Shown: piece after piece, positions 2,192-54,800 of the stretch | Position numbering within the stretch: position 1 is the first letter of the stretch | Layout: each line of letters opens with the position of its first letter | Source of the DNA: Patescibacteria group bacterium | Lineage (GTDB): Bacteria > Patescibacteriota > Patescibacteriia > Patescibacteriales > UBA12465 | NCBI GenBank assembly: GCA_023229115.1 | Contig: JALNZW010000003.1 | Span: forward strand, 1,664-65,663 | Length of the DNA stretch: 64,000 bases | Direction of reading: 5' to 3' | Notes under the pieces: generated by a model | Databases searched by the model: none | Told to the model about the DNA's origin: nothing | Seen by the model: the letters and a program-made list of their open reading frames with translations, nothing else | Position numbers and translations under genes: made by a program

Positions 2192-2264
2192 AAATCGAAG
2201 TCTACTTAATTATTAAAATATTATTTTAACACAAAATACAGGAAAAACAAAGATATTTTTAGTA

Positions 2265-2300: not shown

Positions 2301-2307
2301 TGTTTTT

Positions 2308-2445: not shown

Positions 2446-2535
2446 ATCTTTTAAATTAATTATAAATATAACGATTTCATAATAACACAGAAGAATTTAA
2501 TAAGCAAAAAACACCCAAGCACAAGACTTCTCTTT

Positions 2536-3303: not shown

Positions 3304-3367
3304 AGTTTTATTTTTAATAATATAAATAAATTATAACATAAAAATACAAATATTTAAATTAATTAAA

Positions 3368-3396
3368 ACAAAAAAGCCCTTGAATTTTCAAGGGCA
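3368..3396 (-). terminator. rho-independent terminator after the ABC-F gene
   Basis: gcccttgaa/ttcaagggc 9-bp stem. On the minus strand it is followed by a T-run. Confidence 0.55.
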
Positions 3397-3415
3397 AAAA
3401 CAAATAAGCATTTTA

Positions 3416-4888
3416 CTAAAGTTTTCCTAAATCGAGTTCGTCCGTAATCTTTATTTCTTTTATAAATTCAGACATATGACTAATTATAATCAAAGCTCCC
3501 TGATAATCATTGATAGCTTCAGCTATTATTGGAATATGACGAAAATTTATATGATTTGTCGGCTCATCTAAAACCAAAAGACCTGGTTCCATCAAAACTA
3601 TTCTAGCAAAAGACAACAATCCTTTCTGACCCTCAGATAAATCACCAATTTTACTTCCCATTAAATCTCCTGTAATTAAAAATCCAGCAGCAACCGATCT
3701 CATTGTTTGTTCTGTCATCTCCTTGGAAAGACAAGAATCCAAAGATGAAAAAACCGTTTGATCATAATCTAAATTAGAAAAATCTTGACTATAATAGGCA
3801 AGCTTAACTTTTGGTAAAATCTCCAAGCCCTCTTGAGTTCCCAAGACCAAAGATCTAAGCAAACTACTCTTGCCAATTCCATTTGGCCCCTTTATTAAAA
3901 GCCTATCTCTTTTAGTTAAAACTTTGTTAACATTTTTAAATATTGGTTCATGGTTTTTAATTACTCTAACTTTTGAAATACTAACAATATTACCATTAAT
4001 ATCTTCTTGGGCCGGAATATCAAATTTTCTAATAGTTTTATCTTCCCTTCTAACATCTACTTTATTTTCCTCTAAGTCCTCTGTCTCTGCTTTTAACTTT
4101 TGAGCTAACTTACGCATCTTACCTCCCTTGTTGGCAAAAAAATTTACTTTTTCTTTTCGATCTTTTATCTTTTTTTCTAGTTGTGCATTTTTCATTATTT
4201 CCCTCTCTACTCTTCTGGAAACTTCTTCGACCACTGAATAATAATCACCAACATAAAGCTCTGTCTTTCTAGTAAAAACATCTAAGTAAATAACGCCCTC
4301 GGTAAAGCAGTTTAAAAAATCAGCATCATGAGAAATAACAATAACTGTTTTGTCATACATTATTAAAAAACTAATTAAGTGGTCTATACCACCTTGATCT
4401 AAGTTATTTGTAGGCTCATCTAACAGTAAAATGTCAGGGTCTTTAATTAAAGCAAAGGCAAGTAAAAGTCTCGCCTGTTGACCACCGGAAAGATCGCCAA
4501 CTTTTTTATCCAAAGGTACCTGAAAATCAACCGCATCTAGAACTTTACTGATACGACTTTTTATATTACCAGGAACTTCTTCAAAAGCTTTTGAAAAGTA
4601 ACTTTCAACACTAAGATCTAAATCTTCTTTGGCCATTGTTTGCTTGGCTGTTCCTATGCTAGCATCATTAGTAATGGAAATTAGACCTTCCTTTGCTTTT
4701 AATTCTCCTTTTATTAGCTTAAAAATAGTGCTTTTACCAGCCCCATTTTGACCCATTAAGGTTATTTTTGCTCCCCTTCTGATACTAAAATTAGCCTCAT
4801 CTAAAATGGGCTTTTTTTCTAAATATTCAAATTTAACATCTTTGAAACTAAGTATTACTTCTTCTGACATAAGTTCATATCCAATCAT
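3416..4888 (-). CDS. ABC-F family ATPase (two tandem ABC domains, no TMD; translation-factor type)
   Basis: Two Walker A motifs (GQNGAGKST, GPNGIGKSS), two ABC signatures (LSGGQQARLLLA, LSEGQKGLLSFA) and an inter-domain charged linker. Confidence 0.85.
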   Translation of the reverse strand: MIGYELMSEEVILSFKDVKFEYLEKKPILDEANFSIRRGAKITLMGQNGAGKSTIFKLIKGELKAKEGLISITNDASIGTAKQTMAKEDLDLSVESYFSKAFEEVPGNIKSRISKVLDAVDFQVPLDKKVGDLSGGQQARLLLAFALIKDPDILLLDEPTNNLDQGGIDHLISFLIMYDKTVIVISHDADFLNCFTEGVIYLDVFTRKTELYVGDYYSVVEEVSRRVEREIMKNAQLEKKIKDRKEKVNFFANKGGKMRKLAQKLKAETEDLEENKVDVRREDKTIRKFDIPAQEDINGNIVSISKVRVIKNHEPIFKNVNKVLTKRDRLLIKGPNGIGKSSLLRSLVLGTQEGLEILPKVKLAYYSQDFSNLDYDQTVFSSLDSCLSKEMTEQTMRSVAAGFLITGDLMGSKIGDLSEGQKGLLSFARIVLMEPGLLVLDEPTNHINFRHIPIIAEAINDYQGALIIISHMSEFIKEIKITDELDLGKL

Positions 4889-13245: not shown

Positions 13246-15021
13246 TTAAAACCCCTTACCTCCAAACAGTAAATCATCTTTATCTAATTTTCTTACAATG
13301 TTTTCTTTCTCAATATCAAACCCCTGAGGGACATCACTTTTAATCATGCTAACAATAAGTTGGACATCATACTGAGTACTATAACGTTTAAAAAGTTTGA
13401 TAAAATTTTTCACAGGGTTATCCCCCCAATTTTCCAAGCCGCCATCTAAATAACAAAAGTTAAAATATGAATATTTAGAATAATACAATAAGATGGCTAC
13501 AATAAACGCCACGCACTGCACTCTTGTGGCGGTGTAACCGTCTCCCTTGCCTGTTAATTTTGCTTGATTTAGCGTAACTGTTTTAAAATCTACATTATTT
13601 TCCTTATTCATATTAATGCCAATAACTGCAGTATCATCCATAGACTCTTTATATATTTCGCTAAAAATATTTTGAATTTCCCTATATTCATTTCCAGAAA
13701 GCACCTTATCGACTTCGTTTTTTATTTCATCTATAATAACCTCAATTTTTCTTTTTAGTTGTTGAACGCCTTCTTCGAGTTTCTTAATATCACTAATATT
13801 ATCCAACTGATTTCTATAATCCTTAATTTCAGATTCAATATCAATAATATCGCGCTGATAAATTTTAAACTTAACGAAAGTGTCTTTTTCTTTTAATGTC
13901 TCAAGCGCAAAAAAGCGTTTTTCATTATATTCAATCAACTTTGTTTGGATACTTTCTAATTCATTTTCAAGTTCCACAAGCTCCTCTTTTAAATACTTTT
14001 CTCTTTCCTTTGTTATATCTCTTTCAAAGCTAATTAAGTCTTCGTAATCATTAACCAATTCCTTGGGAAAATAAATTTTTGCCTCATTAAAAATTTTTTC
14101 AATTTCTTTTAAATCAACACTTTCCCGGCTTTCTATAGATTCGTTTATCTTATCTTTTTCATAAGTTACATAGTATTTTCTTGAATTTAAATCAGAAATA
14201 TTTTTCTCAATATCTTCAATTAAATCCTTATTTAATCCGGCTTCCTTTGCAAAAAAATTAAATTGGTCTATTTTTCTCTGCACAGATTCTCTTTCTTTAT
14301 TTTTTGTATCAATTATAGTTTGAATTATATTTTTTTCGTCAGACACACCATTCTCATTCGATTTTCTTTTAATATAACGCTCTTCGTGAGAAATATCATC
14401 TGCGAGTTCAAATTTGTCCAACAATAAAACGCCATTGCCTCCAAATAAGTCAAACAAAAATGGTTTCCAGTACCTATCTTTACTCTTAAAACTTTTCATT
14501 TTAAAAATATCGCCGTATTCATCCTGTTTTCTAAGAATGTATTTCAAAAAGTGACGGTAATTGTGATCCTGAAGCTTATTAAAGTTTAAATATGACTCCA
14601 ATATTTTAACAGCATTCTGTTCATTTGACTTAGTGTTTATAGACACTTCAGTATAGTCCCATGAGTCCATATCTATATTTGTAAAATCCTGATTCTTTTC
14701 TTCATGCAACTTAAAAGAGACTCTTGAACTAATATTTACGCTTCTTCTTATTGTTAAATACTTTCCACTATTTAATTTTATTTCAAGAAAAAATGTCCAA
14801 TCACGAAACTCAAGATAATTTTTTTTAAAAAAATCGCTTTGTTTTTTGAGTAATAAAAAATCAATTAAATAAACTAATGCTGTTTTACCTAAATTATGTT
14901 CATGAAATTTTCCATCTTTGTCAACCTCATTCACGACATCACCAAAAACAATATTCAAACCTTTATCGAATAATATTGGCTTCATTTTTAAATTGTTCGA
15001 ATATATTTTGCTCAACATCAT
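13246..15021 (-). CDS. P-loop NTPase with SMC/ABC-like architecture (DUF2326/YydD-like; candidate ABC-3C-type ATPase)
   Basis: 591 aa. The N-terminal GLNIVFGDV...HNLGKTALVYLIDFLL is a Walker A (GKT) in the SMC/RecF/ABC-like N-terminal style. There is a long central coiled coil (ELVELENELESIQTKLIEYNEK...) and a C-terminal YLDGGLENWGD block. Confidence 0.6.
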   Translation of the reverse strand: MMLSKIYSNNLKMKPILFDKGLNIVFGDVVNEVDKDGKFHEHNLGKTALVYLIDFLLLKKQSDFFKKNYLEFRDWTFFLEIKLNSGKYLTIRRSVNISSRVSFKLHEEKNQDFTNIDMDSWDYTEVSINTKSNEQNAVKILESYLNFNKLQDHNYRHFLKYILRKQDEYGDIFKMKSFKSKDRYWKPFLFDLFGGNGVLLLDKFELADDISHEERYIKRKSNENGVSDEKNIIQTIIDTKNKERESVQRKIDQFNFFAKEAGLNKDLIEDIEKNISDLNSRKYYVTYEKDKINESIESRESVDLKEIEKIFNEAKIYFPKELVNDYEDLISFERDITKEREKYLKEELVELENELESIQTKLIEYNEKRFFALETLKEKDTFVKFKIYQRDIIDIESEIKDYRNQLDNISDIKKLEEGVQQLKRKIEVIIDEIKNEVDKVLSGNEYREIQNIFSEIYKESMDDTAVIGINMNKENNVDFKTVTLNQAKLTGKGDGYTATRVQCVAFIVAILLYYSKYSYFNFCYLDGGLENWGDNPVKNFIKLFKRYSTQYDVQLIVSMIKSDVPQGFDIEKENIVRKLDKDDLLFGGKGF

Positions 15022-15254
15022 AAAACAAATTCTATTACATCTTTATTTTTATAATACTTAATTTTTCTTATTGCGAATAAAAAACAAAGTGATTTTAAAT
15101 ATAAACCCTTTACTCGCTGACCTTTTATAACGATCAGTCTCCGAAGTAAATCATCATATCCAATTATTTTATTTTCCATCAGAATTTTTAACAACACAGA
15201 GCTAATATTTAAAACAGAGTATTCTAAATTTAAATGTTTTGTTGGTTTTAACAT
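15018..15254 (-). CDS. small protein (78 aa from internal Met; the ORF track gives a 129-aa version overlapping the upstream gene) - possible middle component
   Basis: The start was chosen at MLKPTK to avoid a 149-nt overlap with 15259-16236. Its stop overlaps the ATPase start (ATGA-type coupling). Confidence 0.35.
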   Translation of the reverse strand: MLKPTKHLNLEYSVLNISSVLLKILMENKIIGYDDLLRRLIVIKGQRVKGLYLKSLCFLFAIRKIKYYKNKDVIEFVL

Positions 15255-15258
15255 AATA

Positions 15259-16236
15259 TTATGGATTAATACCAAGATCACAATTGAAATACATATAATG
15301 AAGAAGCGTAAATATTTTTCTTTTATCGTATCCCAAGTCTTTAGTAAATTTTTCTTCCACTCTATTATAAACTTCTTGAAAAAACTCAGAAATACTATAA
15401 TATTCATCCTTTTTTGAAATATAAATTTCTTGGAGTTCGTTAAAAACAGAATTATAACAATTTAAAACTTCTTCATTAGCGTCTTCGCTCAAAAAAGATC
15501 TAATAGGGAGATGATGCCTAATATTTTTTCTAACTATATTTTCAAAATAATCTGAAGACATATTATTCTTAATATTCTTTATCTTAATGTCTTTTCTGGT
15601 CGGAATTTTAGTTATTTTCATCTCTGCGATTACGCCATTCTTAATTTCATCGCGAAGTTTTAATACCAAATTTTTTATATCCTCTTCGTTTAAACGAATC
15701 GGTTCATGTAAATTAATTTTAATGTAATCTGCTATATTAATATCTAATATTTTTAAAAGTTTTGACCATTTAACGGGGCTTAGTTGATTAATATCATTGA
15801 CAAGGTCGAAAATATCTTTAATTTGTGTTGTTTTATCAAAATTAAATTTTCCATCAATCTCCTTTTCAAAATCAACAGATTTATACCCACCAGAGCTTTT
15901 TTTACCAATAATAAAAATTATTAACTCGGGAAATTCAAGCGCTCTTGTCGAATGGCTTCTAAGAGTGTCTTTAATTTTTTCAGATCTACTTTCTGACGTT
16001 ATCTGATATGCCACTCCAGCACCTTTGTCACCAAGATCAATGCCTTTTATATTTTTTTCTACCTGATTTAAATTTTTTAAATTAAGATTATAGATTTCAT
16101 TCAAAAAAGTACAAAAAAAATCCTCACTTTTTTTATGAATATCAAATAAACACTGAGAGCCTCTTTGCTCAACATTATTTCGCAATACTCCGAGAGCATC
16201 ACTAATTTGCAAATTAATACCTATACTTTTTAACAT
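15259..16236 (-). CDS. hypothetical protein, candidate effector/sensor of the ATPase cluster (C-terminal R-x4-H HEPN-like motif RKNIRHH)
   Basis: 325 aa with conserved-looking IKGIDLGDKGAGVAYQITS and C-terminal YFENIVRKNIRHHLPIRSF. It is co-directional with, and tightly spaced to, the small ORF and the ATPase. Confidence 0.45.
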   Translation of the reverse strand: MLKSIGINLQISDALGVLRNNVEQRGSQCLFDIHKKSEDFFCTFLNEIYNLNLKNLNQVEKNIKGIDLGDKGAGVAYQITSESRSEKIKDTLRSHSTRALEFPELIIFIIGKKSSGGYKSVDFEKEIDGKFNFDKTTQIKDIFDLVNDINQLSPVKWSKLLKILDINIADYIKINLHEPIRLNEEDIKNLVLKLRDEIKNGVIAEMKITKIPTRKDIKIKNIKNNMSSDYFENIVRKNIRHHLPIRSFLSEDANEEVLNCYNSVFNELQEIYISKKDEYYSISEFFQEVYNRVEEKFTKDLGYDKRKIFTLLHYMYFNCDLGINP

Positions 16237-16369
16237 TTAACTTTAATTATACATCCTTAATGCAAACATAAAATGTGTGAAAAATTGCGTTTTTAGATAT
16301 ATAGAAAAACAATTTTAATATCTTTATTTTAACAGAAAAACCGTTTTAAATCAAAATGACATTCATAAA

Positions 16370-16393
16370 CAAAAAGACGCCTAAACGGCGTCT
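16370..16393 (-). terminator. rho-independent terminator overlapping the methyltransferase stop codon
   Basis: agacgcc/ggcgtct 7-bp stem with the TAG stop in the loop, followed by TTTTT on the minus strand. Confidence 0.55.
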
Positions 16394-17631
16394 CTTAGTG
16401 ATTCTCCTAATTTTTTAATAACTCCGACAACTAAAGCATTGCCCATAATGAATGCTCTTTTAATATCAGGAGCCATTTCAGTATGATTATCAGGAAACAT
16501 ATTTAATCTTTCAAGCTCCAAAGGCATTAATCTTCTCAGCCTTCCTGACTTTGTCTTTATTACATGTTTAAATCTTGATGGAGATGTTCCTCCTTCACCA
16601 GTAACTATTGTTCGAGAAGGTTTATTAATTAAATCAGGAAAGGCCATTTTTCCTTCAGAATAATTATACTCATGTCCGTCTTTAGATTTCCTTGGTGCCG
16701 TCTTTCCACCCTTTAAATATTCCCACCTCTTGATATCAGCAGGTTTAATAAAAAACTCTTCGGGAACTTTTTTTTCATCAATTAAAAAGTCTCCCAATAT
16801 TGAACTCTTACCCTTATAATCTGATTCAACCTTCATTGTTGTTACATGCCCGTTTATCATTACTCCGGCGTTTTCAAATGGACTCTTCGATGGCATATCC
16901 TTTGAAAATTTTTCAGAAACATAAACATAATCAGTGCCAATTTCAAATTGACTAAATTTAACCACGTCTTGATTAACCTTAAAAGCCTTAGCTATTAAAC
17001 CATCATTATTTATCCATTTCTTTTTATCTTTACAGGCTAAAACTTTTTTCCAAATAGATGTATTTTGTTTATAACCCATTATATAAATACGCCGACGACG
17101 TTGAGGAAAACCATAATCAGCGGCATTAATAACTCTCCACTCTACTGCGTAACCGAGTTTAGCTAAAGAGGACAACATAATAGCAAAATCACGACCTCTT
17201 TGTTTAACAGGAGATTTTAATAATCGATCAACATTTTCCAATAATAGAAACTTAGGAGTATTTTTGCCCTTCTTATTGAGAATATTAAAAATAGACCACC
17301 ATAGAACTCCTTTCTTTCCCTCCAGCCCTTTTGATTGCTTAAGTGTCCTGGCAACTGAATAATCTTGGCAAGGAAAACCGCCAACTAATAAATCATGATT
17401 AGGAATGTCATCAAATTTCATATCAACCACCTCTTGTATATCTTCACAAGAGTGTCCTTTACCACCAAAACGAGCCACATAAATATCTGAAGCATACTGT
17501 TTTTTGGCTCCTGGCTCCCACTGACTACTCCAAACAACTCTATATTTTGTATTATTATTACTGGCACCCTCAAGACCAATTCGAAAACCGCCCACACCAG
17601 CAAAAAGCTCAACGATTTTTATCTCCTTCAT
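16381..17631 (-). CDS. DNA (cytosine-5)-methyltransferase
   Basis: Motif I ELFAGVGGF, motif IV GGFPCQDYS, motif VI ENV and motif X MGNALVVGV. It is 416 aa, matching the M.Sau3AI size class. Confidence 0.9.
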   Translation of the reverse strand: MKEIKIVELFAGVGGFRIGLEGASNNNTKYRVVWSSQWEPGAKKQYASDIYVARFGGKGHSCEDIQEVVDMKFDDIPNHDLLVGGFPCQDYSVARTLKQSKGLEGKKGVLWWSIFNILNKKGKNTPKFLLLENVDRLLKSPVKQRGRDFAIMLSSLAKLGYAVEWRVINAADYGFPQRRRRIYIMGYKQNTSIWKKVLACKDKKKWINNDGLIAKAFKVNQDVVKFSQFEIGTDYVYVSEKFSKDMPSKSPFENAGVMINGHVTTMKVESDYKGKSSILGDFLIDEKKVPEEFFIKPADIKRWEYLKGGKTAPRKSKDGHEYNYSEGKMAFPDLINKPSRTIVTGEGGTSPSRFKHVIKTKSGRLRRLMPLELERLNMFPDNHTEMAPDIKRAFIMGNALVVGVIKKLGESLRDAV

Positions 17632-17697
17632 AATATTTCTCTAATTAATAAGCTATGCATGTAGCATAGCATATCAAAAAAAATTGATCAACACCCC

Positions 17698-19125
17698 TTA
17701 TTTTTCGAGGTTTTTCCTTATATAATCAGCATTAAGCCAGAAACAATGTTTCGTATAAAACTTACTACCTGTAAATTCATCTTCCGTTGGAAGTTCTATT
17801 ACATCAGAGGAATCCTTTCCATGAGGCCTAACATGTGCAACTCCATTAAACTTTGATGTTGGAAAGAAGGTAAATCTTCTTTCTTTGCCATTTTTATATT
17901 TTTTTATTTCTTTAACTATTTTACCTTTATCAACTAATTTCTTAGTCTTGCTCCAAACACTCTCAGCGTAGTTCATGTCAGAGGCGGGAAAGTTCCAAAA
18001 TTTATAGCCCTCAAAATGAATTAGATCTTTTGTCTTATCTTTATCTTTCCTAAAAATTATAAACAAAAACCTATCTTCTTCTAACATCTTGAAGAAATTA
18101 GTTTCCTCCCATTTCTGTTTCAGAATTTGTTTATAGTTAAAATATGGAAACGAGATTGATTCTTTTAATTTACCATTACTTTCTAACACCACAACTTTCA
18201 TTGTGACATTAGATTTCTCAAACTCCTCAACCTTATTAGCTGATATGCCGAGCATGAGATTGGCAAGTAATCTTTTATATTGCTTAGTTTTCTTATTAAC
18301 CTTAAGGCCAATCTCAGAAAGTATCTGTTTATCAGACATCCCAATAAAAGGAGCTAATCTATCATCAACAGACTTATCTATTGTCTTTCCTTTTTCGGAT
18401 ATAGATTGAATATCCCCCTCCAATCCCATAATCTTTTCATGGAGAATAAAATTTAAATAGTTTTGCTTCAAAGAAAAGGCTCTTGGCTTTGCTTGTATGT
18501 CAGAGTTTGGCTGCTTTCTTGTAATAGAACTATTAGCCGCCTTCGTGCAAGCACCGAGATAAAAAGTCTCGCCCTCTGAAAGTAAATGCGCCTCCCCTCT
18601 TTTAATTTTATTTATAATATACTCCCAATCATTCTTAATCTGCAAAGCATCTTCAGCAGAAATCTTGTTCACTAAATCAAGTTCATAAAGAAACTTAAAT
18701 TTATATTCCAATAAACTTAGGTCGCTCTCATAAAGATAAAACATAAGTAATATTAACTTATTCTTATCCAAAAATGAACTATGCTCCCAATCTTCTAATA
18801 CAACAGATACATAGTCTATCATTGAGAATACAAGGCGTTCTTTAACGGCATATTCTTTGCTTTTATGTTTTTTTATTGGCGTTGTTTTTAATTCAACTCC
18901 GGCAATCTTAAAGTCAGCCTCATGTCTATTGTCCACCAAAGCCTGGTTAAATACATATTTTTGAACAAGTTGACCAAGAAATCCTTTTCTTTTTTTTCCG
19001 TGTTTTTCTATATCTCTTTTTGCCTCAGCAACATCATCTTTTTCCATCACATCAAGAAGGCGCTTATCCATAAAGGCTAAGGCATCATTAAAGACTTCTT
19101 CTTTTGTGTTATAAACTTTTAACAT
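17698..19125 (-). CDS. type II restriction endonuclease, Sau3AI/MutH family (predicted GATC-specific)
   Basis: 475 aa. The MutH-like catalytic region is DNRHEADFKIAGVELKTTPIKK (D...E-x-K with the GVELKT motif), and the gene lies directly upstream of the C5-MTase. Confidence 0.7.
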   Translation of the reverse strand: MLKVYNTKEEVFNDALAFMDKRLLDVMEKDDVAEAKRDIEKHGKKRKGFLGQLVQKYVFNQALVDNRHEADFKIAGVELKTTPIKKHKSKEYAVKERLVFSMIDYVSVVLEDWEHSSFLDKNKLILLMFYLYESDLSLLEYKFKFLYELDLVNKISAEDALQIKNDWEYIINKIKRGEAHLLSEGETFYLGACTKAANSSITRKQPNSDIQAKPRAFSLKQNYLNFILHEKIMGLEGDIQSISEKGKTIDKSVDDRLAPFIGMSDKQILSEIGLKVNKKTKQYKRLLANLMLGISANKVEEFEKSNVTMKVVVLESNGKLKESISFPYFNYKQILKQKWEETNFFKMLEEDRFLFIIFRKDKDKTKDLIHFEGYKFWNFPASDMNYAESVWSKTKKLVDKGKIVKEIKKYKNGKERRFTFFPTSKFNGVAHVRPHGKDSSDVIELPTEDEFTGSKFYTKHCFWLNADYIRKNLEK

Positions 19126-19131
19126 AAATTA

Positions 19132-19938
19132 TTAAACAATCAACTTTATTTTTGAATCTCTCAAAAATCTGGTTAAGGTTCTTTTTTCTTGACCACCCCT
19201 TGGCACTCTTCCGTAAAATCTTTGTGATCCGACTCTTTTAGTACAGTAACTTATGTAAAGACCGTGCTTAGCTCTTGTCATTGAAACATAAAGCAATCTT
19301 CTTTCGTCTCCAATAAATTCACCTTCATTTTTCCCTGGTAAAAACTCATCTTCAGCCCCAACAATAAAGCAAACATCAAATGTTAACCCTTTAGCTTTGT
19401 GCATAGTAAGAATACTAACAGCATCCTTTTCTGCACTCTGTTCTATTCTATCAGAATTAATACCGATAGACTTTACTATGCTCTCTAATGTATCAGATTC
19501 ATCTGAAATATATTTAACAAAATATTTTAAAATCCTCTCACGTAAAACGGTATCTTCCACATAGTGCTCTATAACTCCTTTAACTTTATCAATTAAATTG
19601 TCTATTTTATTAAATTCTTCTAAATCATCTTCTACTTTTTCAACGAAACTCTTTATCTTTTCTCCATATTTACTAACAACAATATTTTGCTTTATTTCTT
19701 GTAAAGATTTACTGAATCTAAGATTTTTATCAACTGCTATTCGAAAAACATCATCAATACTTTTTTCTCCAATATTATTTTTAGCAAGCTCCAAGAGTGT
19801 TCTCCACGCTAAATCATCTTCTTTATTCGATAATAATCTAAAAATAGAAAGGACGACTCTAAATTCTGACTGGCTTTCTAATGCTGAATCAGGGGCACCC
19901 GCAATCATGATACCATTACCAACAAGCACATCACTCAT
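19132..19938 (-). pseudogene. helicase C-terminal fragment (SF1 UvrD-like motifs V-VI) of a disrupted nuclease-helicase gene
   Basis: ILTMHKAKGLTFDVCFIVGAED ... LLYVSMTRAKHGLYI are UvrD/PcrA helicase C-terminal motifs. No Walker A/B is found in this ORF. Confidence 0.55.
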
Positions 19939-19973
19939 TAAACTTAAAATGGCAGCACTTCTTGATAATATGA

Positions 19974-20558
19974 CTATTTTTTCTGCTGGAACACCTTTAC
20001 TAATACATCAAATGCTGATAAATAAGTCTTTCCAAGACCTGTGGCGAATACTACAAGACCTTTGTTTTTGCCAGATTTTCTTGTTTCATCTAAAGCCTCA
20101 AGGGCACGATTTTGAATATAGTGAGGCTCAACATCTCCCAACCTATTTAAATATATTTTATAAAGTTGTTCATCACCTATAAAACTTCTTCTTATTTCCC
20201 AAATGCAAGATTGAGGCTCTTTTCTTATTAAATCATTGGTAAATCGTATTAGATGAAAACCCTCTTTTATAATTTCGTTTTGCTTGTTTTGTAAATGATT
20301 AAAATATTCTTTAGTAACAGCTCCTTGCGCGTGATAATAGAGGCCGTCACACTCTATTGCATATTTTTTAAATTTTGTTGTTATAACAAAATCTAGTCTA
20401 TACACACCAGAACCATCTGGTTTAGGTATTTCATATTCTGGAGTAATATAATCAAGCCCCTTTTCTCCAAAATCTTTATAATAAACATTGATTATAAAGG
20501 TTTTACCCAAATCATTTAGCTTGTTTTTATATTTAAATAAAAAATCATTTAGTTTCAT
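19974..20558 (-). pseudogene. N-terminal fragment: DUF559/Vsr-like PD-(D/E)xK endonuclease domain plus helicase Walker A (ATGLGKTY), truncated
   Basis: YRLDFVI...AIECDGLYYH nuclease motifs, then GLVVFATGLGKTYLS. The ORF ends 20 residues later. The next ORF is in a different frame and carries only C-terminal helicase motifs. Confidence 0.5.
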
Positions 20559-29231: not shown

Positions 29232-29963
29232 TTAAAAATTCAAATAATTTATTTTTCTTTTTATAAAATTTTGGAAATTTTTATCTGTTTTTAAATCTAA
29301 TAAAAATGAAAAATCATTTTTTTTAACAAACTCCTTTAAAGACAATAAGTCTTTGTTGATTTTCAAATGATTTATTTTATCAAGACTTCTATTGATAGTT
29401 TCCTTATTAGTACAAGAATCACAAACAACGCCTCCGCGATTTAAACTAATAAAATTCAAATTTTTATCGCAACCGCACTCAACACATCTAGAAGTTTGAT
29501 AAGAATAACCAAGCAAGTCTAAAAGTTTAAACTTTAAAATGTCACCTAAAAAATCAAGATCCTTTAAAGACTTACTCTTAACACTTTCAATGGAATCATT
29601 AATAGTTTTTAAAAAATTATTTAAAAAAATAAAAAGATCAAAATCTGCCTGGCCTTCTTTTACATGTTGATTAAAAAAAGAAAAAACCTTACCACTTAAA
29701 AGTAAAGAATTATAATCATTTTTTAAATTTAGAAAAGAATTTTGACTGATTACGCTACCAACACTAACCCCGTTTTTATTTTTAATCATCATTAAATCTA
29801 CAAAATTAAAAGGCTCAAGATGAGCCACTAATTTAGATGATTGCTTTCTAGCCCCTCTGGCTGTTAAAACTAATTTACCAAAGTCTAAAGTATAAAAATA
29901 GATTAAAGCATCATTTTCTTTATGGGGAAATCTATTTAAAACTATGGCTTTAGTTCTTATCAT
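29232..29963 (-). CDS. recO: DNA repair protein RecO
   Basis: N-terminal OB fold followed by a C-terminal CxxC...CxxC zinc finger (CVECGC...CDSC). Confidence 0.75.
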   Translation of the reverse strand: MIRTKAIVLNRFPHKENDALIYFYTLDFGKLVLTARGARKQSSKLVAHLEPFNFVDLMMIKNKNGVSVGSVISQNSFLNLKNDYNSLLLSGKVFSFFNQHVKEGQADFDLFIFLNNFLKTINDSIESVKSKSLKDLDFLGDILKFKLLDLLGYSYQTSRCVECGCDKNLNFISLNRGGVVCDSCTNKETINRSLDKINHLKINKDLLSLKEFVKKNDFSFLLDLKTDKNFQNFIKRKINYLNF

Positions 29964-30340
29964 CTTTTATCTAAATAAGATTGAAGGATTATCATAGCTG
30001 CCAAAGAATCGCGATTATCGTTCATTTTTTTATTCATTATAGAGTCAGCTTGTAAACTAGAAAGCCTTTCATCAATCAAAATCATCTTAACTTCTTTTCC
30101 AACTAATTCTTTTTCAATAAAATTAATAAATCTTAAAAAATTTTTATTGTCACTTTCTTGACCACTCATTTTCTTGGGATTGCCAATTACTAAAAAACCT
30201 ATTCCTTCCTTTTTCACAAGCTCAAGTAAAGCCGATGGACTAGAAACGGTTTTAAAAGGTGTAGATATTTTATTTTCACTGTTAGCCAGAGCCAGGCCTA
30301 TTCTTTTCTCGCCCCAGTCAACCCCCAAATATTTAATCAT
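29960..30340 (-). CDS. ruvX: Holliday-junction resolvase-like protein RuvX/YqgF
   Basis: 126 aa with LGVDWGEKRIGLALA and IGNPKKMSG ... IDERLSS motifs. Confidence 0.85.
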   Translation of the reverse strand: MIKYLGVDWGEKRIGLALANSENKISTPFKTVSSPSALLELVKKEGIGFLVIGNPKKMSGQESDNKNFLRFINFIEKELVGKEVKMILIDERLSSLQADSIMNKKMNDNRDSLAAMIILQSYLDKR

Positions 30341-44893: not shown

Positions 44894-45904
44894 TTAGTTT
44901 GGATAATAACAAGTATTGCCCATTTCATATAAAAAACTTATTTCATCTAGAGACAATTCCCGGTTAAAAAACATAATCTCATCAATTGGTCCCAAAAAAT
45001 AATAACCATCAAACCTTCTTCCAATAAAATCAATTAATATATTACTTGAATTATTTCCAGAATAAGAGGTCCCAATCTTAACTCCGTTAATATAAAAATC
45101 AAAATTATAACTATCTGTTTTTACAACAACCAAATGAACAAATTCATTTACCTTAGACCAATTAACGCCAGTATAGCCTGATCCAACCTGAAAGGCTAAA
45201 AATTCTGTACCATTATAACGAATACCAGCAGTACGAGAAGAGTCACCTATGAAATATCTAGTAGTAGAAACATTATTGAGATTAATCCAAAGAGATAGGC
45301 TTGTGCCAACAGAAAACTCTATTGGAGAATTCAAGGTTATGTAATTGCTAGAACCATCAAAATTAAAAGCTTGCCCAAACCTACCATCAACATAAGTGGC
45401 TCCAGTAAAAACACCATCATAATTTCCTAAATAATCATTAGCATTTTCTTCCGCCTGTAAATAGGCTATTAAATCAGAAGGACAGCAAGGACTATCTATT
45501 ATGTTTTCATTTACTGCACAATTATAACCAGAATCAAAATCATCCAAATTGCCCTCTAACTCAAAAGAAAGGGAATATTTTCCACTGTCTTGATAATGAT
45601 TATAAATAACATTATCAGGAATCTTATCATAAAAAACAACACCCGAAGGGCTAACTAATTGTTCACCGTAATTAAAATTTTGATTATCAGGATATTCACC
45701 TTCTACCATTTTATAAGACTCTAGAGCTAATCTTAACTCTGAAATATTACTTAAAACCTTTTTGTCCCTAGCTGATCTTCTAATAACACTAACTGAAGCG
45801 ATAGCCACGGTTGTCACTAATGAAATTATTAAAACAACCACCATGAGTTCTGTAAAAGTAAAAGCAGTTAATAAATTTTTTCTATTTTTTTTAAAAACAA
45901 ACAT
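44894..45904 (-). CDS. prepilin-type N-terminal domain protein with C-terminal LamG-like (concanavalin A-like) domain, paralog 3
   Basis: N-terminus MFVFKKNRKNLLTAFTFTELMVVVLIISLV (class III signal). C-terminal LamG_3-like block ending IDEIMFFNRELSLDEISFLYE. Confidence 0.7.
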   Translation of the reverse strand: MFVFKKNRKNLLTAFTFTELMVVVLIISLVTTVAIASVSVIRRSARDKKVLSNISELRLALESYKMVEGEYPDNQNFNYGEQLVSPSGVVFYDKIPDNVIYNHYQDSGKYSLSFELEGNLDDFDSGYNCAVNENIIDSPCCPSDLIAYLQAEENANDYLGNYDGVFTGATYVDGRFGQAFNFDGSSNYITLNSPIEFSVGTSLSLWINLNNVSTTRYFIGDSSRTAGIRYNGTEFLAFQVGSGYTGVNWSKVNEFVHLVVVKTDSYNFDFYINGVKIGTSYSGNNSSNILIDFIGRRFDGYYFLGPIDEIMFFNRELSLDEISFLYEMGNTCYYPN

Positions 45905-45930
45905 AAATATTTGTAAATTATAAATTATTA

Positions 45931-47004
45931 TTATAAAACACTATCCACCCACATAGGACAAGACGTCGGACAATCAGGTAATAAAGAAGCATTGTTTTTA
46001 TTAATAGAATAATCCAAAACAGAACACCCAGAACCATCATCCATTAACCATCGAACGAGCAGATCGTTACTTGATATTTTTCTTCCTTCATGTAAAGAAA
46101 CTATTTCCTCAAGAGTTAGAGCTCTTCTGTAAATTCGAGCATCATAAATATAGCCTTTAAAATAGTTAGAAATGCCAGCTGTGTATACACCTCTATAACC
46201 AGAAGTTATCGGTCTATTTATTGAATTAACCAAATTAATACTATAGGTTCTCTCTCCAACTTTAACACCATCCAAATAAGCAAAAAACTTTTTATTAGAA
46301 AAATCATGAACAATAGTTGCTAAATACCACTGATTTCTAGGGACATAAGAATCAAAGCTAACACAAAAAGCAAGGCTATCTCCATAAGTACAAACTCTGT
46401 TAGCATAAAGATGAAATCCGAAAAGATACTGCTGACCAACACCTATAACCGTTTGCCAATTCATTAAATCTTGGTTATCAACATATACCCAAGCACTAGC
46501 TGAGTAATCACCGGAATTAATATTAAAATCAACGTTTTGACTGGAGGATAAACAATCATCGACTCCATCAAATTTAAGATAATTACTACTTAGATCAGGT
46601 ATAATGTCTTTGTTTGTAATCCCTTCAGGTGTTGCTAAGTTTAAACCTTCACTCAATTGATCTGAATTATTTTCTAGTTCAAATTCTAGCTCATAATAAT
46701 CGTCTCCAAATAATAAATATGAAAAATCACCCGGCATTTCATTTAAAAAAACCAAATTGGAAGAGCTTCCAATTAATTGATCACTCAAATTTAATTGTTC
46801 CGGATATTCCCCTTCAACGTTTTTATAATTTTCTAAAGCAATTTGAATTTGATTAACATCATTGATTTTTTTTAAGTCCCTACCCTTACTCCTGGAATTA
46901 GAAAGAGAAATCATCACTAAAGTAGAAATTAAGGCAACAATTAAAACAGCAACTAAAATCTCAACAAAGGTAAAGGCTTTCTTGTTTTTAAAAACATTAA
47001 TCAT
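45931..47004 (-). CDS. prepilin-type N-terminal domain protein with C-terminal LamG-like domain, paralog 2
   Basis: N-terminus KKAFTFVEILVAVLIVALISTLVMISLSNSRSKGRDLKKINDVNQIQIALENYK. C-terminus ...ARIYRRALTLEEIVSLHE. Confidence 0.7.
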   Translation of the reverse strand: MINVFKNKKAFTFVEILVAVLIVALISTLVMISLSNSRSKGRDLKKINDVNQIQIALENYKNVEGEYPEQLNLSDQLIGSSSNLVFLNEMPGDFSYLLFGDDYYELEFELENNSDQLSEGLNLATPEGITNKDIIPDLSSNYLKFDGVDDCLSSSQNVDFNINSGDYSASAWVYVDNQDLMNWQTVIGVGQQYLFGFHLYANRVCTYGDSLAFCVSFDSYVPRNQWYLATIVHDFSNKKFFAYLDGVKVGERTYSINLVNSINRPITSGYRGVYTAGISNYFKGYIYDARIYRRALTLEEIVSLHEGRKISSNDLLVRWLMDDGSGCSVLDYSINKNNASLLPDCPTSCPMWVDSVL

Positions 47005-47007
47005 ATT

Positions 47008-48249
47008 TTAGTAATTTTTGTAATATTTTTTAGTATTATCATACAAACTCAAAACTTCTTCAGCTGATAAAGCCTTATTAAAATACATAGCATCGTTTAT
47101 ACGACCTTGAAAATAAGATTCGGTAGTACTACCACCCTTACCTAAAAACATGGGCTTGTCAGTTCCTATATTCATAACGGTATTTTCGATTTCAGATATC
47201 AACTGACCATTCTTATAAAATCTACGAAAAGAACCATCATCAGTTAAAACAATAAAATGCCAACCATCGGGGTATTTACTTAGAATATAATCTTCTATGG
47301 GCCACCATTGCCTATCGATAGAATCAATTGAATTTTGACTAGCAATTTTACCAGAATAGAGGGCTAGCCCCCAACGACCCAAACTCAAACCAGTACCCCA
47401 CAACAATCCTCCTGAGCCCTGTGGCTTTGTACCATCTAGCCAAAGAGCTAAAGAATATTCTGTTTGTTTTGGCATTGTTGAAATATTAAAAAAATCATCA
47501 ACTCCATCAAAATAAACAAATCCATTGATCAATTTTGGCTGAAGATCAATATTTGTTTGAATTGCATTTTTTTTATTCAAAGAAAGATCATAAATCTCTC
47601 CAACCCCATCAACACTACTGCTGTCAATTTTTAAGCCACCATCAGATGATAAAAAAAGAATTAAATTTTCATAAATATTATTGTTTTGAAAATAATGGAA
47701 TAAGTTGTAGGTTTTATTTTCATTTAAAATAAAACCTCCACTACTAGAAACAAAACCTAAATAGTCTAAGCAATAATCTCGACAACAAGCTGATTCAAGA
47801 ATGCCATCAGCATTAGCACATTTAATTCCGGGAGAAAAATTTAAAGCAGTATTTTCAACTTCAAAACCTATGTCATAACTCAAAGTTAAAGTATTATAAT
47901 AATAATCAACTTTGTCTGGCACCTCACTTAAAAAAACCAAACCAGAAGAACTTCCAACTAACGATTCTCCTGGGATTAATTGTTCTGGGTATCGTCCTTC
48001 AACATTTTTATAATTTTCTAAAGCAACTTGAATTTGATTAACATCATTAATTCTTTTTAAATCTCTGCCCTTACTCCTGGAGTTAGAAAGAGAAATCATC
48101 ACTAAAGTAGAAATTAAGGCAACAATTAAAACAGCAACTAAAATCTCAACAAAGGTAAAAGCTTTTTTATTTCTTATAAACAAAAAATTATTCATACCAA
48201 AATTATAGCAAAAAAATATATATTTTAAAAACAAAAAACGGAGCTTCAA
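47008..48249 (-). CDS. prepilin-type N-terminal domain protein with C-terminal LamG-like domain, paralog 1 (true start probably the internal Met at 48195)
   Basis: The first 55 residues after the leader are identical to paralog 2. C-terminus DAMYFNKALSAEEVLSLYD. The Met at residue 19 gives a 12-aa leader before AFTFVE. Confidence 0.7.
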   Translation of the reverse strand: MKLRFLFLKYIFFCYNFGMNNFLFIRNKKAFTFVEILVAVLIVALISTLVMISLSNSRSKGRDLKRINDVNQIQVALENYKNVEGRYPEQLIPGESLVGSSSGLVFLSEVPDKVDYYYNTLTLSYDIGFEVENTALNFSPGIKCANADGILESACCRDYCLDYLGFVSSSGGFILNENKTYNLFHYFQNNNIYENLILFLSSDGGLKIDSSSVDGVGEIYDLSLNKKNAIQTNIDLQPKLINGFVYFDGVDDFFNISTMPKQTEYSLALWLDGTKPQGSGGLLWGTGLSLGRWGLALYSGKIASQNSIDSIDRQWWPIEDYILSKYPDGWHFIVLTDDGSFRRFYKNGQLISEIENTVMNIGTDKPMFLGKGGSTTESYFQGRINDAMYFNKALSAEEVLSLYDNTKKYYKNY

Positions 48250-51170: not shown

Positions 51171-51590
51171 TTAAGCTTTTGGCTTTTTGGCACCATAGCA
51201 GCTTCTTCCCTGTCTTCGAGCATCAACACCCTGAGCATCATAAACACCACGAACAACTTTGTATCTAACACCCGGTAAATCTTTTGTTTTTCCACCCTTA
51301 ATTAAAACGATTGAGTGCTCTTGCAAATTATGTCCCATTCCAGGAATATAGGCAGTAACCTCCATTCCATTAGACAAACGAACACGAGCAATTTTACGTA
51401 AAGCTGAGTTCGGTTTCTTGGGAGTCATGGTAGTAACCTTAAGACAAACACCCTGCTTAAAAGGTGAGCCACTTTTTGTAACTTTTTTCTTACGATGCAA
51501 AGAATCTAAACTAGTACGTAAAGCTAAATTCTTTTTTCTTTTACTGGAAGGTTTTCTTCCCTTTCTAACTAACTGATTAATAGTTGGCAT
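51171..51590 (-). CDS. rpsL: 30S ribosomal protein S12
   Basis: 139 aa with [10 protein letters not shown] and [12 protein letters not shown]. Confidence 0.95.
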
Positions 51591-51721: not shown

Positions 51722-52645
51722 TTATTCCTTAATACATCTAATGTATCGACCATAAACAGAGTCTATCAGAACAGAGTTAGAAGTCACAATTGTTAACCCA
51801 CTATTATTATATACATCATACAAACGTGTTCCGAGATCATCTACTGTTCTGGTCCAGAGATAAAAACCAGTTCCGAAATAAGGCCATTGAGTTGAATATT
51901 TGTGACCACCAGGAAGTAAAGAAAAGCCAAGATCGTCAGTGCCATAAACAGTGTCAGAAGCCCAATAAGGATGCTCTGAAGTTGTACATTCTCCTCTTAA
52001 AGGAGAATTTGTTTGACGACATGATCTAAGATTATAAACATTATAGGCACCAATATTGCTAATTAGAGAAATAAAATCATCTCTGGTTGGCACCATCCAA
52101 CCATCAGGACAAACTCCTCTAGGGTCAGTTATAGTATGAGATGAGTAAACATAGCCATAAAGACCGCTATAAAGAAAATCATGAGTCGGATAATTCACTC
52201 CTGTCCAACTTCCAGTAACATAAGGAATACTATCCCTATTTTTAAATTTGTCAGTTATTAAATTTTCTTTAAACCAACACTGATCACCGATAGCAACTGT
52301 AGGATAAGTGTAACCATTATAGGAGACATCTTGACCACATTCAAAAGTATCAACAATACAAGAACCACTTTGACAAATATAGCCAGGTTGGCAATCAGGG
52401 TAACAAATATTAGAAGTAGATTCTCCTCCTTCTCCTGATTCACCACTTGAACAATCATAATTTAAAATACCTCCAGGTGTAGCACATTTTGGTCCTTCTT
52501 CTAGGCTAGAGATGTCATTTCCTAAACAGAAAGAAATAGAATAAGTAGAATAATCATCATCAACTTGATAATAAAAAGTATTTTGATTAGGATCACAGAC
52601 ACCATCAGCTGGATAAGGAGCAGTAGGAATATTAATCATTAACAT
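51722..52645 (-). CDS. FISUMP (Fibrobacter succinogenes major paralogous) domain protein; downstream part of a frameshifted prepilin-FISUMP gene
   Basis: GDQCWFKENL...GVCPDGWMVPTRDDFISL... matches the FISUMP signature. Confidence 0.7.
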   Translation of the reverse strand: MLMINIPTAPYPADGVCDPNQNTFYYQVDDDYSTYSISFCLGNDISSLEEGPKCATPGGILNYDCSSGESGEGGESTSNICYPDCQPGYICQSGSCIVDTFECGQDVSYNGYTYPTVAIGDQCWFKENLITDKFKNRDSIPYVTGSWTGVNYPTHDFLYSGLYGYVYSSHTITDPRGVCPDGWMVPTRDDFISLISNIGAYNVYNLRSCRQTNSPLRGECTTSEHPYWASDTVYGTDDLGFSLLPGGHKYSTQWPYFGTGFYLWTRTVDDLGTRLYDVYNNSGLTIVTSNSVLIDSVYGRYIRCIKE

Positions 52646-52899
52646 TTCTCCACTAGAAGTAATGAGAGTACCACTATTCCATTCTTCTACAGTAGGATAA
52701 CGGCCTTGTTCATTAAAGAATAGCTCTAGGGCGGTTTGGGTTTGTTTAACGTCAGCTACACGTTTAGAATCACGAGCACGAGAGCGAGCCTGTTGTAAGG
52801 CGACAACTGCTAAGTAGCCAGTATTCCAATGATAGCGATTACTACCAAGAGTTCGATGAGGGTGAAGGCTTTTTGTTTTTTATAATTGTTTTTAAACAT
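52646..52899 (-). pseudogene. prepilin-type leader plus N-terminal helix segment, offset by 1 nt from the FISUMP ORF (frameshift near 52812)
   Basis: From ATG at 52899: MFKNNYKKQKAFTLIELLVVIAIIGILAT, then TAG. The -1/+2 frame continues (L)AVVALQQARSRARDSKRVADVKQTQTALELFFNEQGRYP... directly into MLMINIPTAPY. One T appears to be missing in ACT-TTA. Confidence 0.55.
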
Positions 52900-52943: not shown

Positions 52944-54800
52944 TTATAATAAAACGGCTTTAATTCTCCTAACACCAGAACTAGAACTTTCTTCTTTTTG
53001 TATTTTAAATACACCTAAATTTTCCAAACTTTCAACATGAGGACCACCACAAATTTCTTTAGAAAAGTCACCCACAGAATAAACTTTTACTTTTTCTCCA
53101 TATTTAGATTCAAAAACTCCAGTAGCCCCCATCTTCTTAGCTTCTTCCAAACTCATTTCGCTACAATTAACTTTTAAACCTTTCTGAATATTTTCATTTA
53201 CCAAATCTTCTACTTGTTTTTTTTGTTCATCAGTCATTTTCTCAGGATGCGAAAAATCGAAACGAAGTCTTTCGGCAGTAATATTACTTCCCCGCTGTGA
53301 TACATGATCACCTAAAACTCGACGAAGAGCCTCTAACAATAAATGAGCCGCAGTATGAAGCTTGGTAGTTTCCTCGCTTTGATCAGCCAGACCTCCCTTA
53401 AACTTTCCAGCACTAGCGGTTTTAGATAATTTTTGATGTTTGTTTAAAGCTTGATTATATTCCTCTAAAAAATTATCTGATTTGGAAATATTTTTTTCTT
53501 CTATAATTTCTAATGTCATCTCGAGTGGATAGCCATGACTTTGAAAAAGATTAAAAGCAATTTCGCCATTAATTTTCTCCCCCTTTTCAACCAAACTATT
53601 TAAAACTCTCTCCCCCTTCTCTATGGTTTTATTAAACTTGTATTCTTCTTCATTAAAAGCTTTTAAAATAAAATTCCTATTTTTATTTAATTCACTATAA
53701 GAATCTTTATAGAAATCAACAATCACCTGACTTAATTCAGAGATAAGATTTTGTTGTTCAATTTTTAATTGCTTCAAGTAGCGCACCGCTCGTCTAATAA
53801 GACGCCTAATAATATAACCTTGATCAGTGTTAGATGGGCTAAGTCCCTTGTCATCTCCCAATAAAAAAGTTGCACCCTTAATATGATCAGCAATAACTTC
53901 AAAAGCTTTTTTATTATCTTCGTATTTAAGTCCAGAAATATTTTCTAATCTATCAACAATAGAACCCAAGGAGTCAATTTTGAAAATATTGCTCAAATTA
54001 TTTTTTATCATCACAATTCGCTCTAATCCTCCACCAAAGTCAACATTTTTGTTTTCTAATTCTTTCCAGCCATCAACTGTTTTTTGATACTGCATAAAAA
54101 CAGAATTACCAATTTCAATAAATCTTCCACAGTCGCAATTTAAATGACAATGCTCACCAAATTTTGGATCATGTTTTTTACCAGTATCATAAAAAGTTTC
54201 ACTATCTGGACCGCCTAATTCTCCAACAGCATCACCTCTCTGCCACCAATTTTTATCACGGTAAGCAAAGATTCTATCTTTAAAAAAATCAAGCTCTACA
54301 CCCGGCCCCTCATCTCCCTTGGTGGTAGTTTCGGGTCCTTCACCAGCTTCAACTCCGTATTTCTTATAAATATTTTTTAGAATTTGAATTGATTCTTCAT
54401 CTTTGACAATATTCTTTCCATCACCAACATAAACTGTTTGATAAATTTTATTTATATCAAAGCCTAGTTCTTCTATTAAAAATTCAAACCACCAATTCAA
54501 TTGCTCCTCTTTAAAATAATCTCCCAAACTCCAGTTACCAAGCATTTCAAAAAAAGTATTATGGCGACCATCGCCAACATCATCAATATCTTCGGAACGA
54601 AAACATTTTTGACTATTTGTTAAACGAACGCCAGCTGGATGTTTCTCGCCTAAAAGATATGGGACCAAGGGAAACATACCAGAATTGGTAAACAAAAGAC
54701 TAGAATCATTTTCGGGAATGAGCGATGAAGATGATATCAGGGCGTGTTGTTTTTTTTGAAAAAATTCAAAATATTTTTGTCTGATTTCACTAGTTGTCAT
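52944..54800 (-). CDS. alaS: alanine--tRNA ligase, short form lacking C-Ala domain
   Basis: Catalytic core (FTNSGM, RHNTFFEMLGNWSLGDYFK) and editing-domain HTAAHLL...CGGPHV. It is 618 aa, versus about 870 aa for typical AlaRS. Confidence 0.85.
   Translation of the reverse strand: MTTSEIRQKYFEFFQKKQHALISSSSLIPENDSSLLFTNSGMFPLVPYLLGEKHPAGVRLTNSQKCFRSEDIDDVGDGRHNTFFEMLGNWSLGDYFKEEQLNWWFEFLIEELGFDINKIYQTVYVGDGKNIVKDEESIQILKNIYKKYGVEAGEGPETTTKGDEGPGVELDFFKDRIFAYRDKNWWQRGDAVGELGGPDSETFYDTGKKHDPKFGEHCHLNCDCGRFIEIGNSVFMQYQKTVDGWKELENKNVDFGGGLERIVMIKNNLSNIFKIDSLGSIVDRLENISGLKYEDNKKAFEVIADHIKGATFLLGDDKGLSPSNTDQGYIIRRLIRRAVRYLKQLKIEQQNLISELSQVIVDFYKDSYSELNKNRNFILKAFNEEEYKFNKTIEKGERVLNSLVEKGEKINGEIAFNLFQSHGYPLEMTLEIIEEKNISKSDNFLEEYNQALNKHQKLSKTASAGKFKGGLADQSEETTKLHTAAHLLLEALRRVLGDHVSQRGSNITAERLRFDFSHPEKMTDEQKKQVEDLVNENIQKGLKVNCSEMSLEEAKKMGATGVFESKYGEKVKVYSVGDFSKEICGGPHVESLENLGVFKIQKEESSSSGVRRIKAVLL

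Follow-up and report, generated by a model that had tools for sequence, protein, structure and literature searches.

The 64,000-nucleotide (nt) stretch analysed here, hereafter the window, comes from contig JALNZW010000003.1 of a Patescibacteria group bacterium and carries on its minus strand, in the gene order murC-murB-alaS-pilin-rpsL-rpsG-fusA, two fragments that belong to one gene, which encodes a modular type IV pilin ending in a FISUMP domain. The explanation that we favor, with a probability of about 0.72, is that a very recent and real 1-bp deletion has switched off this pilin, and that the deleted allele coexists with an intact allele in near-identical strains. The copy found in the window is most likely an ordinary young loss-of-function allele segregating in nature.

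One pilin gene in two reading frames

From the ATG at position 52899, 29 codons are read (MFKNNYKKQKAFTLIELLVVIAIIGILAT) before a premature TAG at 52812-52810, and in the -1 frame after that TAG the sequence LAVVALQQARSRARDSKRVADVKQ... is stop-free through 363 codons to a TAA at 51724-51722, ending ...GRYIRCIKE. The two fragments, when joined by one added base, give a 392-residue protein from a single gene. The initial annotation of this region, which described a prepilin-FISUMP fusion interrupted by a frameshift, was correct in its coordinates and domains, in placing a 307-residue FISUMP open reading frame (ORF) at the 3' side of the break with the N-terminal helix in the shifted frame, and in calling the site one base short, as all nine related genes in a DNA alignment have exactly one extra base there. 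The 3' fragment has neither a start codon nor a signal peptide of its own 5' of the Met at 52645, and because an upstream start codon is absent the ORF list holds just the 307-residue ORF in the -1 frame. The GenBank record of the metagenome-assembled genome (MAG) has the same break, annotated as MCK9438832.1 (307 residues, 'fibrobacter succinogenes major paralogous domain-containing protein'), two protein accessions from the alanyl-tRNA synthetase (AlaRS) MCK9438834.1. Exact look-ups of the 307-residue and 305-residue products found no record matching either.

The repaired protein matches the N_methyl profile PF07963 at 37.2 bits (curated cut-off 21.2) over residues 7-31 and TIGR02532 at 31.9 (cut-off 16.3) over residues 9-32, and its C-terminal part matches Fib_succ_major, PF09603, at 79.2 bits (cut-off 33.9) over residues 202-391 and the whole of the profile (positions 1-187 of 187), as well as the FISUMP family TIGR02145 at 68.4 (cut-off 41.65), with the conserved pattern of Cys and Trp residues kept. 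A putative cleavage site, present in the repaired reading only, lies between KQKA and FTLIELLVVIAIIGILATLAVVAL, and the processed form would start FTLIE with Glu at +5, as in a prepilin leader. An AlphaFold2 (AF2) model of residues 30-392 has a mean predicted local distance difference test (pLDDT) score of 77 and comprises a long helix, a small sheet, a disordered linker, and a mixed alpha/beta C-terminal domain, with a pLDDT of 80-97 for the helix at model residues 2-36 and the strands. Sequence profiles match solved pilins over the helix only (E-values of 7e-17 to 3e-5), and the DNA of the pilin module downstream of the lesion is nearly identical in paralogs at other loci. Leader and helix are not continuous with the pilin head in the window allele, which stops after residue 29, whereas they are continuous in two contigs of the same lineage (L058 and L059) and in the ortholog L016. 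With its pilin module, low-confidence linker, and FISUMP module, the repaired protein is a modular pilin sensu Raynaud et al. (2021, PMC8179133).

This pilin and FISUMP architecture is very common in Patescibacteria. Most of the 120 homologs listed have both PF07963 and PF09603; their names are 'FISUMP domain-containing protein' or 'prepilin-type N-terminal cleavage/methylation domain', and they come from Patescibacteria and Falkowbacteria. Five of the 120 have PF09603 without PF07963, and three of those five are positional orthologs of the window gene. Two homologs, P0003 and P0004, are intact and have exactly the repaired junction, GILATLAVVALQQARSRARDSKR. We take IPR011871 to be the entry for FISUMP. 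IPR011871 is one of the 15 most frequent added domains in modular pilins, which are an established class of more than 1,200 proteins with 264 architectures, many of them from the candidate phyla radiation (CPR, equivalent to Patescibacteria) (Raynaud et al. 2021, PMC8179133). The view that a pilin-anchored FISUMP domain is in itself unusual is thus contradicted both by the homologs and by the literature on the class.

Among characterized systems, PilB (vWA module) and PilC (ConA-like lectin module) of Streptococcus sanguinis (Raynaud et al. 2021, PMC8179133) are modular type IV pilins like the window protein, which differs from them in the nature of its module, in having Ala rather than Gly as the -1 residue, and in that the copy is inactivated. 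With the FISUMP proteins (TIGR02145, PF09603) of Fibrobacter and Bacteroidota, the window domain shares a full-length profile match and the Cys/Trp pattern, but classical members of that family bear a lipoprotein signal (PMC5758913), whereas the window domain is anchored through the pilin module. Coordinates of the gene, its parts, and its neighbors are collected in Table 1.

Table 1. Features of the interrupted pilin gene and the flanking synteny anchors, in window coordinates
Feature	Coordinates	Strand	Description
Lesion	between 52812..52813	-	C of the CTA Leu30 codon lost: ACT/TAG, intact ACT-CTA-G
5' fragment	52810..52899	-	29 codons: leader MFKNNYKKQKA, then FTLIELLVVIAIIGILAT, then TAG
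3' fragment	51722..52813	-	-1 frame, 363 codons LAVVALQQARS...RCIKE plus TAA; tblastn places residues 30-392 at 52813-51725
Class III (prepilin) signal / N-methylation motif	52808..52881	-	residues 7-31 of the repaired protein; split in two by the lesion
Rest of pilin module, alpha-1 helix and small beta-sheet head	52451..52813	-	residues 30-150; predicted structure
Gly/Ser/Glu-rich linker and Cys-rich mini-domain	52298..52450	-	residues 151-201; low pLDDT at model residues 126-135
FISUMP (Fib_succ_major) module	51728..52297	-	residues 202-391; profile matches
Mechanical 307-residue ORF	51722..52645	-	from the ORF list; annotated in the GenBank MAG record as MCK9438832.1
alaS	52944..54800	-	upstream synteny anchor
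rpsL	51171..51590	-	downstream synteny anchor, followed by rpsG and fusA

The lost base and its alleles

In an alignment of the 5' 480 nt of the window gene with nine related genes, all nine read ACT-CTA-G or ACT-TTA-G at the lesion, seven of them with C. Contigs encoding an AlaRS identical to that of the window were aligned to it. Three of these, L055 (ENA ERZ27247346, 98 kb), L056 (JGI 3300015214), and L057 (ENA ERZ27247376), have the deletion and flanks identical to the window; two others, L058 (JGI 3300014206) and L059 (ENA ERZ27247361), read ACT-C-TAG in frame, and their AlaRS and flanks are also 100% identical to the window. Besides the C, the intact and deleted alleles of the window's lineage show no differences over ~590 nt. 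The base lost is a C, and the TT of the window is a product of the deletion. Since the TT arises through loss of the C, there is no homopolymer tract at the site, and the two alleles, ACTCTAG and ACTTAG, differ by a lone C with no simple-sequence-repeat tract of the kind by which phase-variable genes are recognized. A T missing from a T-run, as had been proposed, is at odds with the C of L058 and L059 and of seven of the nine relatives.

Genuine variation or artefact

The deletion is most likely genuine DNA variation, and sequencing error is unlikely. It is found in identical form in four contigs, the window included, which come from two pipelines, those of JGI and ENA, and represent no fewer than three sample accessions. 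No paralog in the alignment has the deletion, so that a chimeric assembly path would have been unable to produce it. Outside of homopolymers, moreover, single-base deletions are a rare product of consensus short-read assembly, and the site is not one prone to error. In the 64 kb, one further candidate broken gene was seen (a split nuclease-helicase at 19132-20558), the other ORF pairs checked being distinct complete genes. It is nevertheless conceivable that the true genome has the C and that the gene is intact, because paralogs share copies of the N-terminal module, within which many contigs end (L052-54, L056-58), because two other assemblies of Falkowbacteria HGW-1 lack the breaks seen at internal repeats in its NCBI MAG, and because the C allele is present in two contigs. 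Weighed against the recurrence of the deletion at a non-homopolymer site and the want of a paralog from which a chimera could draw it, such an error of sequencing or assembly is quite improbable. Of the three options put forward in the initial annotation, a recent pseudogene is the one supported, more exactly a young loss-of-function allele that occurs beside an intact allele; sequencing error is disfavored by the same deletion in L055-L057, and a homopolymer or programmed slip by the identity of the lost base as C.

Several observations weigh against our explanation. The alleles were read from assembled contigs only. A P0004-like paralog is identical over 41 nt spanning the site, the C among them, and bubble-merging in the assemblies of L058 and L059 is therefore possible; the L058 contig, furthermore, ends just 34 nt beyond the site. 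Some ENA assemblies may be re-assembled JGI reads, in which case the contigs are not all independent samples. Foldseek searches with the AF2 model gave weak matches to EpsG, GspG, and PilA (probability 0.5-0.87, E >0.1) and nothing significant for the FISUMP domain, and no prepilin peptidase or pilus machinery was found among the ORFs scanned in the 64-kb window. The intact allele is slightly less secure than the deletion allele.

Of the two contigs with the C, L059 is the more informative 3' of the site, as it tracks the window for ~700 nt (99% identity) before passing into a different FISUMP module, which matches that of the P0003 paralog at 96% identity, with 9 mismatches in 225 nt. Because this tail is 96% and not 100% identical to P0003, L059 is a distinct allele and no simple chimera. 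A metagenome-wide scan with a lesion-spanning pattern, in a collection that does not include the window's contig, returned only intact alleles of the P0004-like paralog with a 3-base gap, and contigs anchored on rpsL end inside the gene short of the lesion and carry no information on the site.

Programmed recoding

Programmed recoding, by -1 ribosomal frameshifting or by transcriptional slippage, would restore the full-length pilin from the deleted allele. A -1 shift gives exactly the conserved ...ILATLAVVAL..., and the zero-frame stop could pause the ribosome; a zero-frame stop at the shift site is also a feature of the programmed frameshift genes prfB (+1) and dnaX (-1). Unlike those of prfB and dnaX, however, the window site lacks both a slippery sequence and a stimulatory structure, and the shift is not conserved in orthologs. 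The site reads GCU ACU UAG, without an X XXY YYZ heptamer, such that the tRNA-Thr on ACU must re-pair with UAC, and a run of two Ts is far from long enough to allow transcriptional slippage. Folding of the 106 nt around the site is less stable than that of shuffled controls (minimum free energy of -18.1 versus a mean of -21.9 kcal/mol, z +1.31), and an Rfam search of the site region matched no family. All nine relatives and the two same-strain contigs are in frame at the site, and the lesions of orthologs differ in kind and position. A programmed frameshift was rejected on the absence of slippery site, stimulatory structure, and Rfam family, and recoding of either type is highly improbable; the programmed or homopolymer slip envisaged in the initial annotation is unsupported, the lost base being a lone C.

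Positional orthologs and the two-gene alternative

The gene between alaS and rpsL is also broken in related genomes, at other points. In L001-L005 and L064-L066 (Logan runs from several projects; NCBI GCA_964444855.1), an in-frame TGA stands in place of GGA (Gly66) and divides the gene into a 65-residue N_methyl ORF and a 315-residue FISUMP ORF. In L006-L008 (JGI 3300033163, 3300033164, 3300033166) and the GTDB MAG contig L018, a 1-nt deletion (GAT-TTTCT) lies near codon 130, and the remainder is called as a 579-residue ORF. Another GTDB species representative, L016, has an intact 733-residue gene with the order pilin-FISUMP-x-FISUMP, and L060 is intact over the 140 residues before its contig end. 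Among five close lineages, whose AlaRS are 91-100% identical, three, the window's included, each have a single, different, and young lesion. Kind and position of the lesion vary among these three, and the ortholog in L016 is intact; the lesions thus represent independent knock-outs of one gene, in at least two sister lineages besides the window's, rather than a two-gene design. With the window excluded, two of four positional genes are broken versus none of the ~12 paralog loci read (Fisher p ~0.05 by our own arithmetic, on a small sample ascertained from a broken gene), and as a sign of favored loss the independent hits among sister lineages are no more than suggestive.

Split orthologs had been named in the initial annotation as grounds for two genuine genes, and on their face the orthologs are indeed split, but the inference fails on their different lesions and on the intact L016. 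Under a two-gene organization, the window would encode a 29-residue peptide and a separate 307-residue FISUMP protein. Gene callers and GenBank do annotate a stand-alone FISUMP protein of 305 or 307 residues, and the positional orthologs are likewise called as split. Yet the sequence from the stop to the annotated ATG, 84 codons long, is conserved and protein-coding, near-identical to that of the intact pilins P0003 and P0004; the lineages split at different points; the 307-residue product has no signal peptide even though its domain is Cys-rich and of an extracellular type; and the other product would be a lone 29-residue half-helix, for which we know of no role. Two genuine genes are scarcely credible here, and we regard this organization as refuted by the alignment with relatives.

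For the lineage with the TGA, decoding of UGA as Gly (genetic code 25) was considered and rejected, because there is no in-frame TGA in alaS, murB, rpsL, rpsG, or fusA of L001 and L064, nor in the genes of the window. It is also contradicted by the TGA of ruvX, which serves as a genuine stop where the gene overlaps the start of recO (ATGA). A short fusA call in L064 was rejected as a sign of recoding, as it reflects only the contig end and the N-terminus is normal.

Age of the lesions and selection on the gene

Over four lineages, the ratio of non-synonymous to synonymous substitution rates (dN/dS) of the repaired pilin gene is 0.11-0.30, versus 0.01-0.07 for alaS, rpsL, and rpsG, with synonymous divergence (dS) of 0.37-1.2 in the latter three genes. 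A dN/dS of 0.11-0.30 implies that the pilin gene was under purifying selection until recently, for most of the divergence time. Each broken copy has one lesion, with no second stop in the 338-596 codons 3' of any lesion; on the assumption that ~5% of substitutions create a stop, the absence of further downstream stops bounds the age of each lesion at less than 0.03-0.06 substitutions per site.

Two members of the TGA lineage, L001 and L064, have the stop in common and differ at 96 of 5,139 positions. A 962-nt tract around the TGA (2185-3146) shows zero differences and its flanks are mosaic, with 16 synonymous and 3 non-synonymous changes in the downstream ORF (3147-3930) that are clustered and continue into rpsL and rpsG. 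The 16:3 ratio was not accepted as proof that the broken gene is still translated, since the clustered differences resemble imported recombination tracts. To account for the pattern, the segment with the stop may have undergone a sweep, recombination tracts may have been imported, or selection may have continued.

Possible module exchange at the locus

Apart from the lesion, the gene may have been rearranged. The single FISUMP module of the window resembles repeat 1 of the orthologs L006 (5001-6740) and L016 (4001-6202) in its 5' part and repeat 2 in its 3' part ('GSWTGVNYP', 'WTRTVDDLGT'), a comparison which suggests an in-frame collapse between two repeats with loss of ~340 residues, including the middle domain. 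In L059, the intact pilin gene (2469-3308) has a P0003-type FISUMP module from the QCWFKENL motif onward, with a nucleotide identity of 96% to L009; the module was either swapped in at this locus or belongs to a chimera that went undetected. The N-terminal module, as measured through L059 (99% identical to the window there), is ~96% identical to the paralog in L019, at an unrelated locus beside a methyltransferase gene, and ~85.5% identical to the positional ortholog in L006.

In Falkowbacteria HGW-1 (L061/L062, 5894-7861), the gene after alaS encodes a pilin of 655 residues that has two DUF1566 (Lcl_C) modules and in which a remnant of the leader is duplicated, MKNFFKTKKAFTLI...NTRKKAFTLVELLVV. 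The NCBI MAG version (L063, 5894-7759) has three ORFs owing to an added A (+1) and a 103-nt deletion, both at the repeat TGTGGCGGCGGTGTAGTCTTT. HGW-1 was not counted as an additional broken lineage, as these lesions lie at internal repeat boundaries, are absent from the two other assemblies, and are a probable misassembly. A separate frame break was seen in a two-FISUMP gene of the HGW-Falkowbacteria-1 MAG (L020, 949-1580; frame 1 to 3 near 1056-1062), and may be a repeat-related assembly problem.

It is tempting to regard the site between alaS and rpsL-rpsG-fusA as a contingency or 'expression' locus, at which modular pilins are switched OFF and ON and exchange C-terminal modules by paralog recombination through the N-terminal module, with broken alleles being reversible. 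Consistent with this are the young lesions of three in five close lineages, the intact allele beside the deletion in the window's lineage, and the small number of broken homologs elsewhere (of the five in 120 listed that lack PF07963, three are positional), together with the different FISUMP module of L059 despite its identical AlaRS, the closer match of the N-terminal module to L019 than to L006, the DUF1566 modules and leader scar of the HGW-1 pilin, and the difference-free tract with mosaic flanks in the TGA lineage. As in the pilE/pilS system of Neisseria, there would be a conserved 5' module, variable 3' parts, mosaic alleles, ON and OFF alleles, and, in L059, a module swap at a fixed site. 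In gene conversion of the Neisseria type, promoterless silent cassettes donate variable 3' segments to one expression locus. Unlike pilE/pilS, the window has no identified silent promoterless cassettes, G-quadruplex (G4) element, or homopolymer tract, and neither a repeat tract nor an invertible element was found in it; the lesions are ordinary point mutations, and no reversion was directly observed. The sample of lineages is also small and was ascertained from a broken gene, and the breaks of HGW-1 resemble misassembly. A dedicated variation locus is thus an unlikely explanation, albeit one with several observations in its favor.

Similar domains are diversified elsewhere by diversity-generating retroelements (DGRs), whose CLec2 targets include Legionella LdtA and a category 'd' with DUF1566/Fib_succ_major (PMC5758913). 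The window module belongs to the same domain family, which in DGR targets serves as a diversified surface ligand-binding module, but variation at the pilin locus takes the form of whole-module replacement and not of adenine-specific mutagenesis. DGR diversification was rejected, as the FISUMP region has no template-repeat partner in 64 kb, although no specific search for a reverse transcriptase was made.

Other features of the window and related records

Three tandem intact modular pilins (N_methyl and Laminin_G_3) lie directly after fusA and before tuf on the minus strand (44894-48249), an arrangement also present in L006-L008, and the 5' ends of two of the three share a 204-nt repeat of 91% identity (46791-46994, 47976-48179). 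A defense-island-like cluster on the minus strand (13246-19125) includes ABC-3C components (a DUF2326 protein; MC8/MC6; SMEK_N with CTD12), a C-5 cytosine methylase (16381-17631), and a MutH-like endonuclease protein (17698-19125). Adjacent to it, the interval 19132-20558 (minus strand) is a probable second decayed gene, in which a 194-residue ORF combines a nuclease domain (REase_MTES_1575/DUF559) with no more of ResIII than its first 44 positions, and the 268-residue ORF that follows matches only positions 109-349 of UvrD_C, the middle of the helicase seemingly missing.

The stop codons of 66 long ORFs in the window are TAA in 52 instances, TAG in 11, and TGA in 3; two of the three TGA stops are followed immediately by an in-frame TAA, and one of these is the ATGA overlap of ruvX (29960-30340) with recO. 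Among the related records, L016, L018, and L019, GTDB representative MAGs with Patescibacteria-type loci, are titled 'uncultured Gammaproteobacteria bacterium', an apparent mislabel.

Consequences for the pilin and its host

When intact, the protein would be processed by a prepilin peptidase and assembled into a type IV filament, probably at the tip, where the FISUMP module would be displayed as a ligand- or host-binding adhesin; this role of a pilus-displayed adhesin is inferred from family membership. The spontaneous loss of one C in codon 30 stops translation after 29 residues and strands the other 363 codons without a signal peptide, leaving the allele OFF. Such a loss may be tolerated through the many paralogous modular pilins, or it may be selected, for example through escape from pilus-dependent phages or a changed host partner. 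The deleted copy belongs to a known protein class and is a young pseudogene allele of an ordinary kind; the one mildly novel point is the recurrent knock-out of this surface adhesin, together with swapping of its C-terminal module.

There are practical consequences for annotation. The 305- or 307-residue 'FISUMP domain-containing protein' of public records corresponds to the tail of a pilin gene that has been broken, and in-frame TGA codons or split calls in this family are no sign of separate genes or of an alternative genetic code.

Type IV pili are the best-supported means of host-cell attachment in Patescibacteria, as in studies of Saccharibacteria. Were the locus indeed a dedicated site of variation, at which point lesions repeatedly turn the gene off and recombination brings it back, it would act on the population level, in a Falkowbacteria-like clade, as an ON/OFF switch that also sets the specificity of interactions with hosts or phages, with FISUMP x1, FISUMP x2, and DUF1566 x2 as its modules, and would be functionally analogous to Neisseria pilE/pilS without the known machinery of that system. 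On the favored explanation of an ordinary recent deletion, a knock-out beside an intact allele, and independent knock-outs in sister lineages, mark the pilus adhesin as dispensable or counter-selected in some settings, and make its gene a candidate determinant of host or phage specificity.

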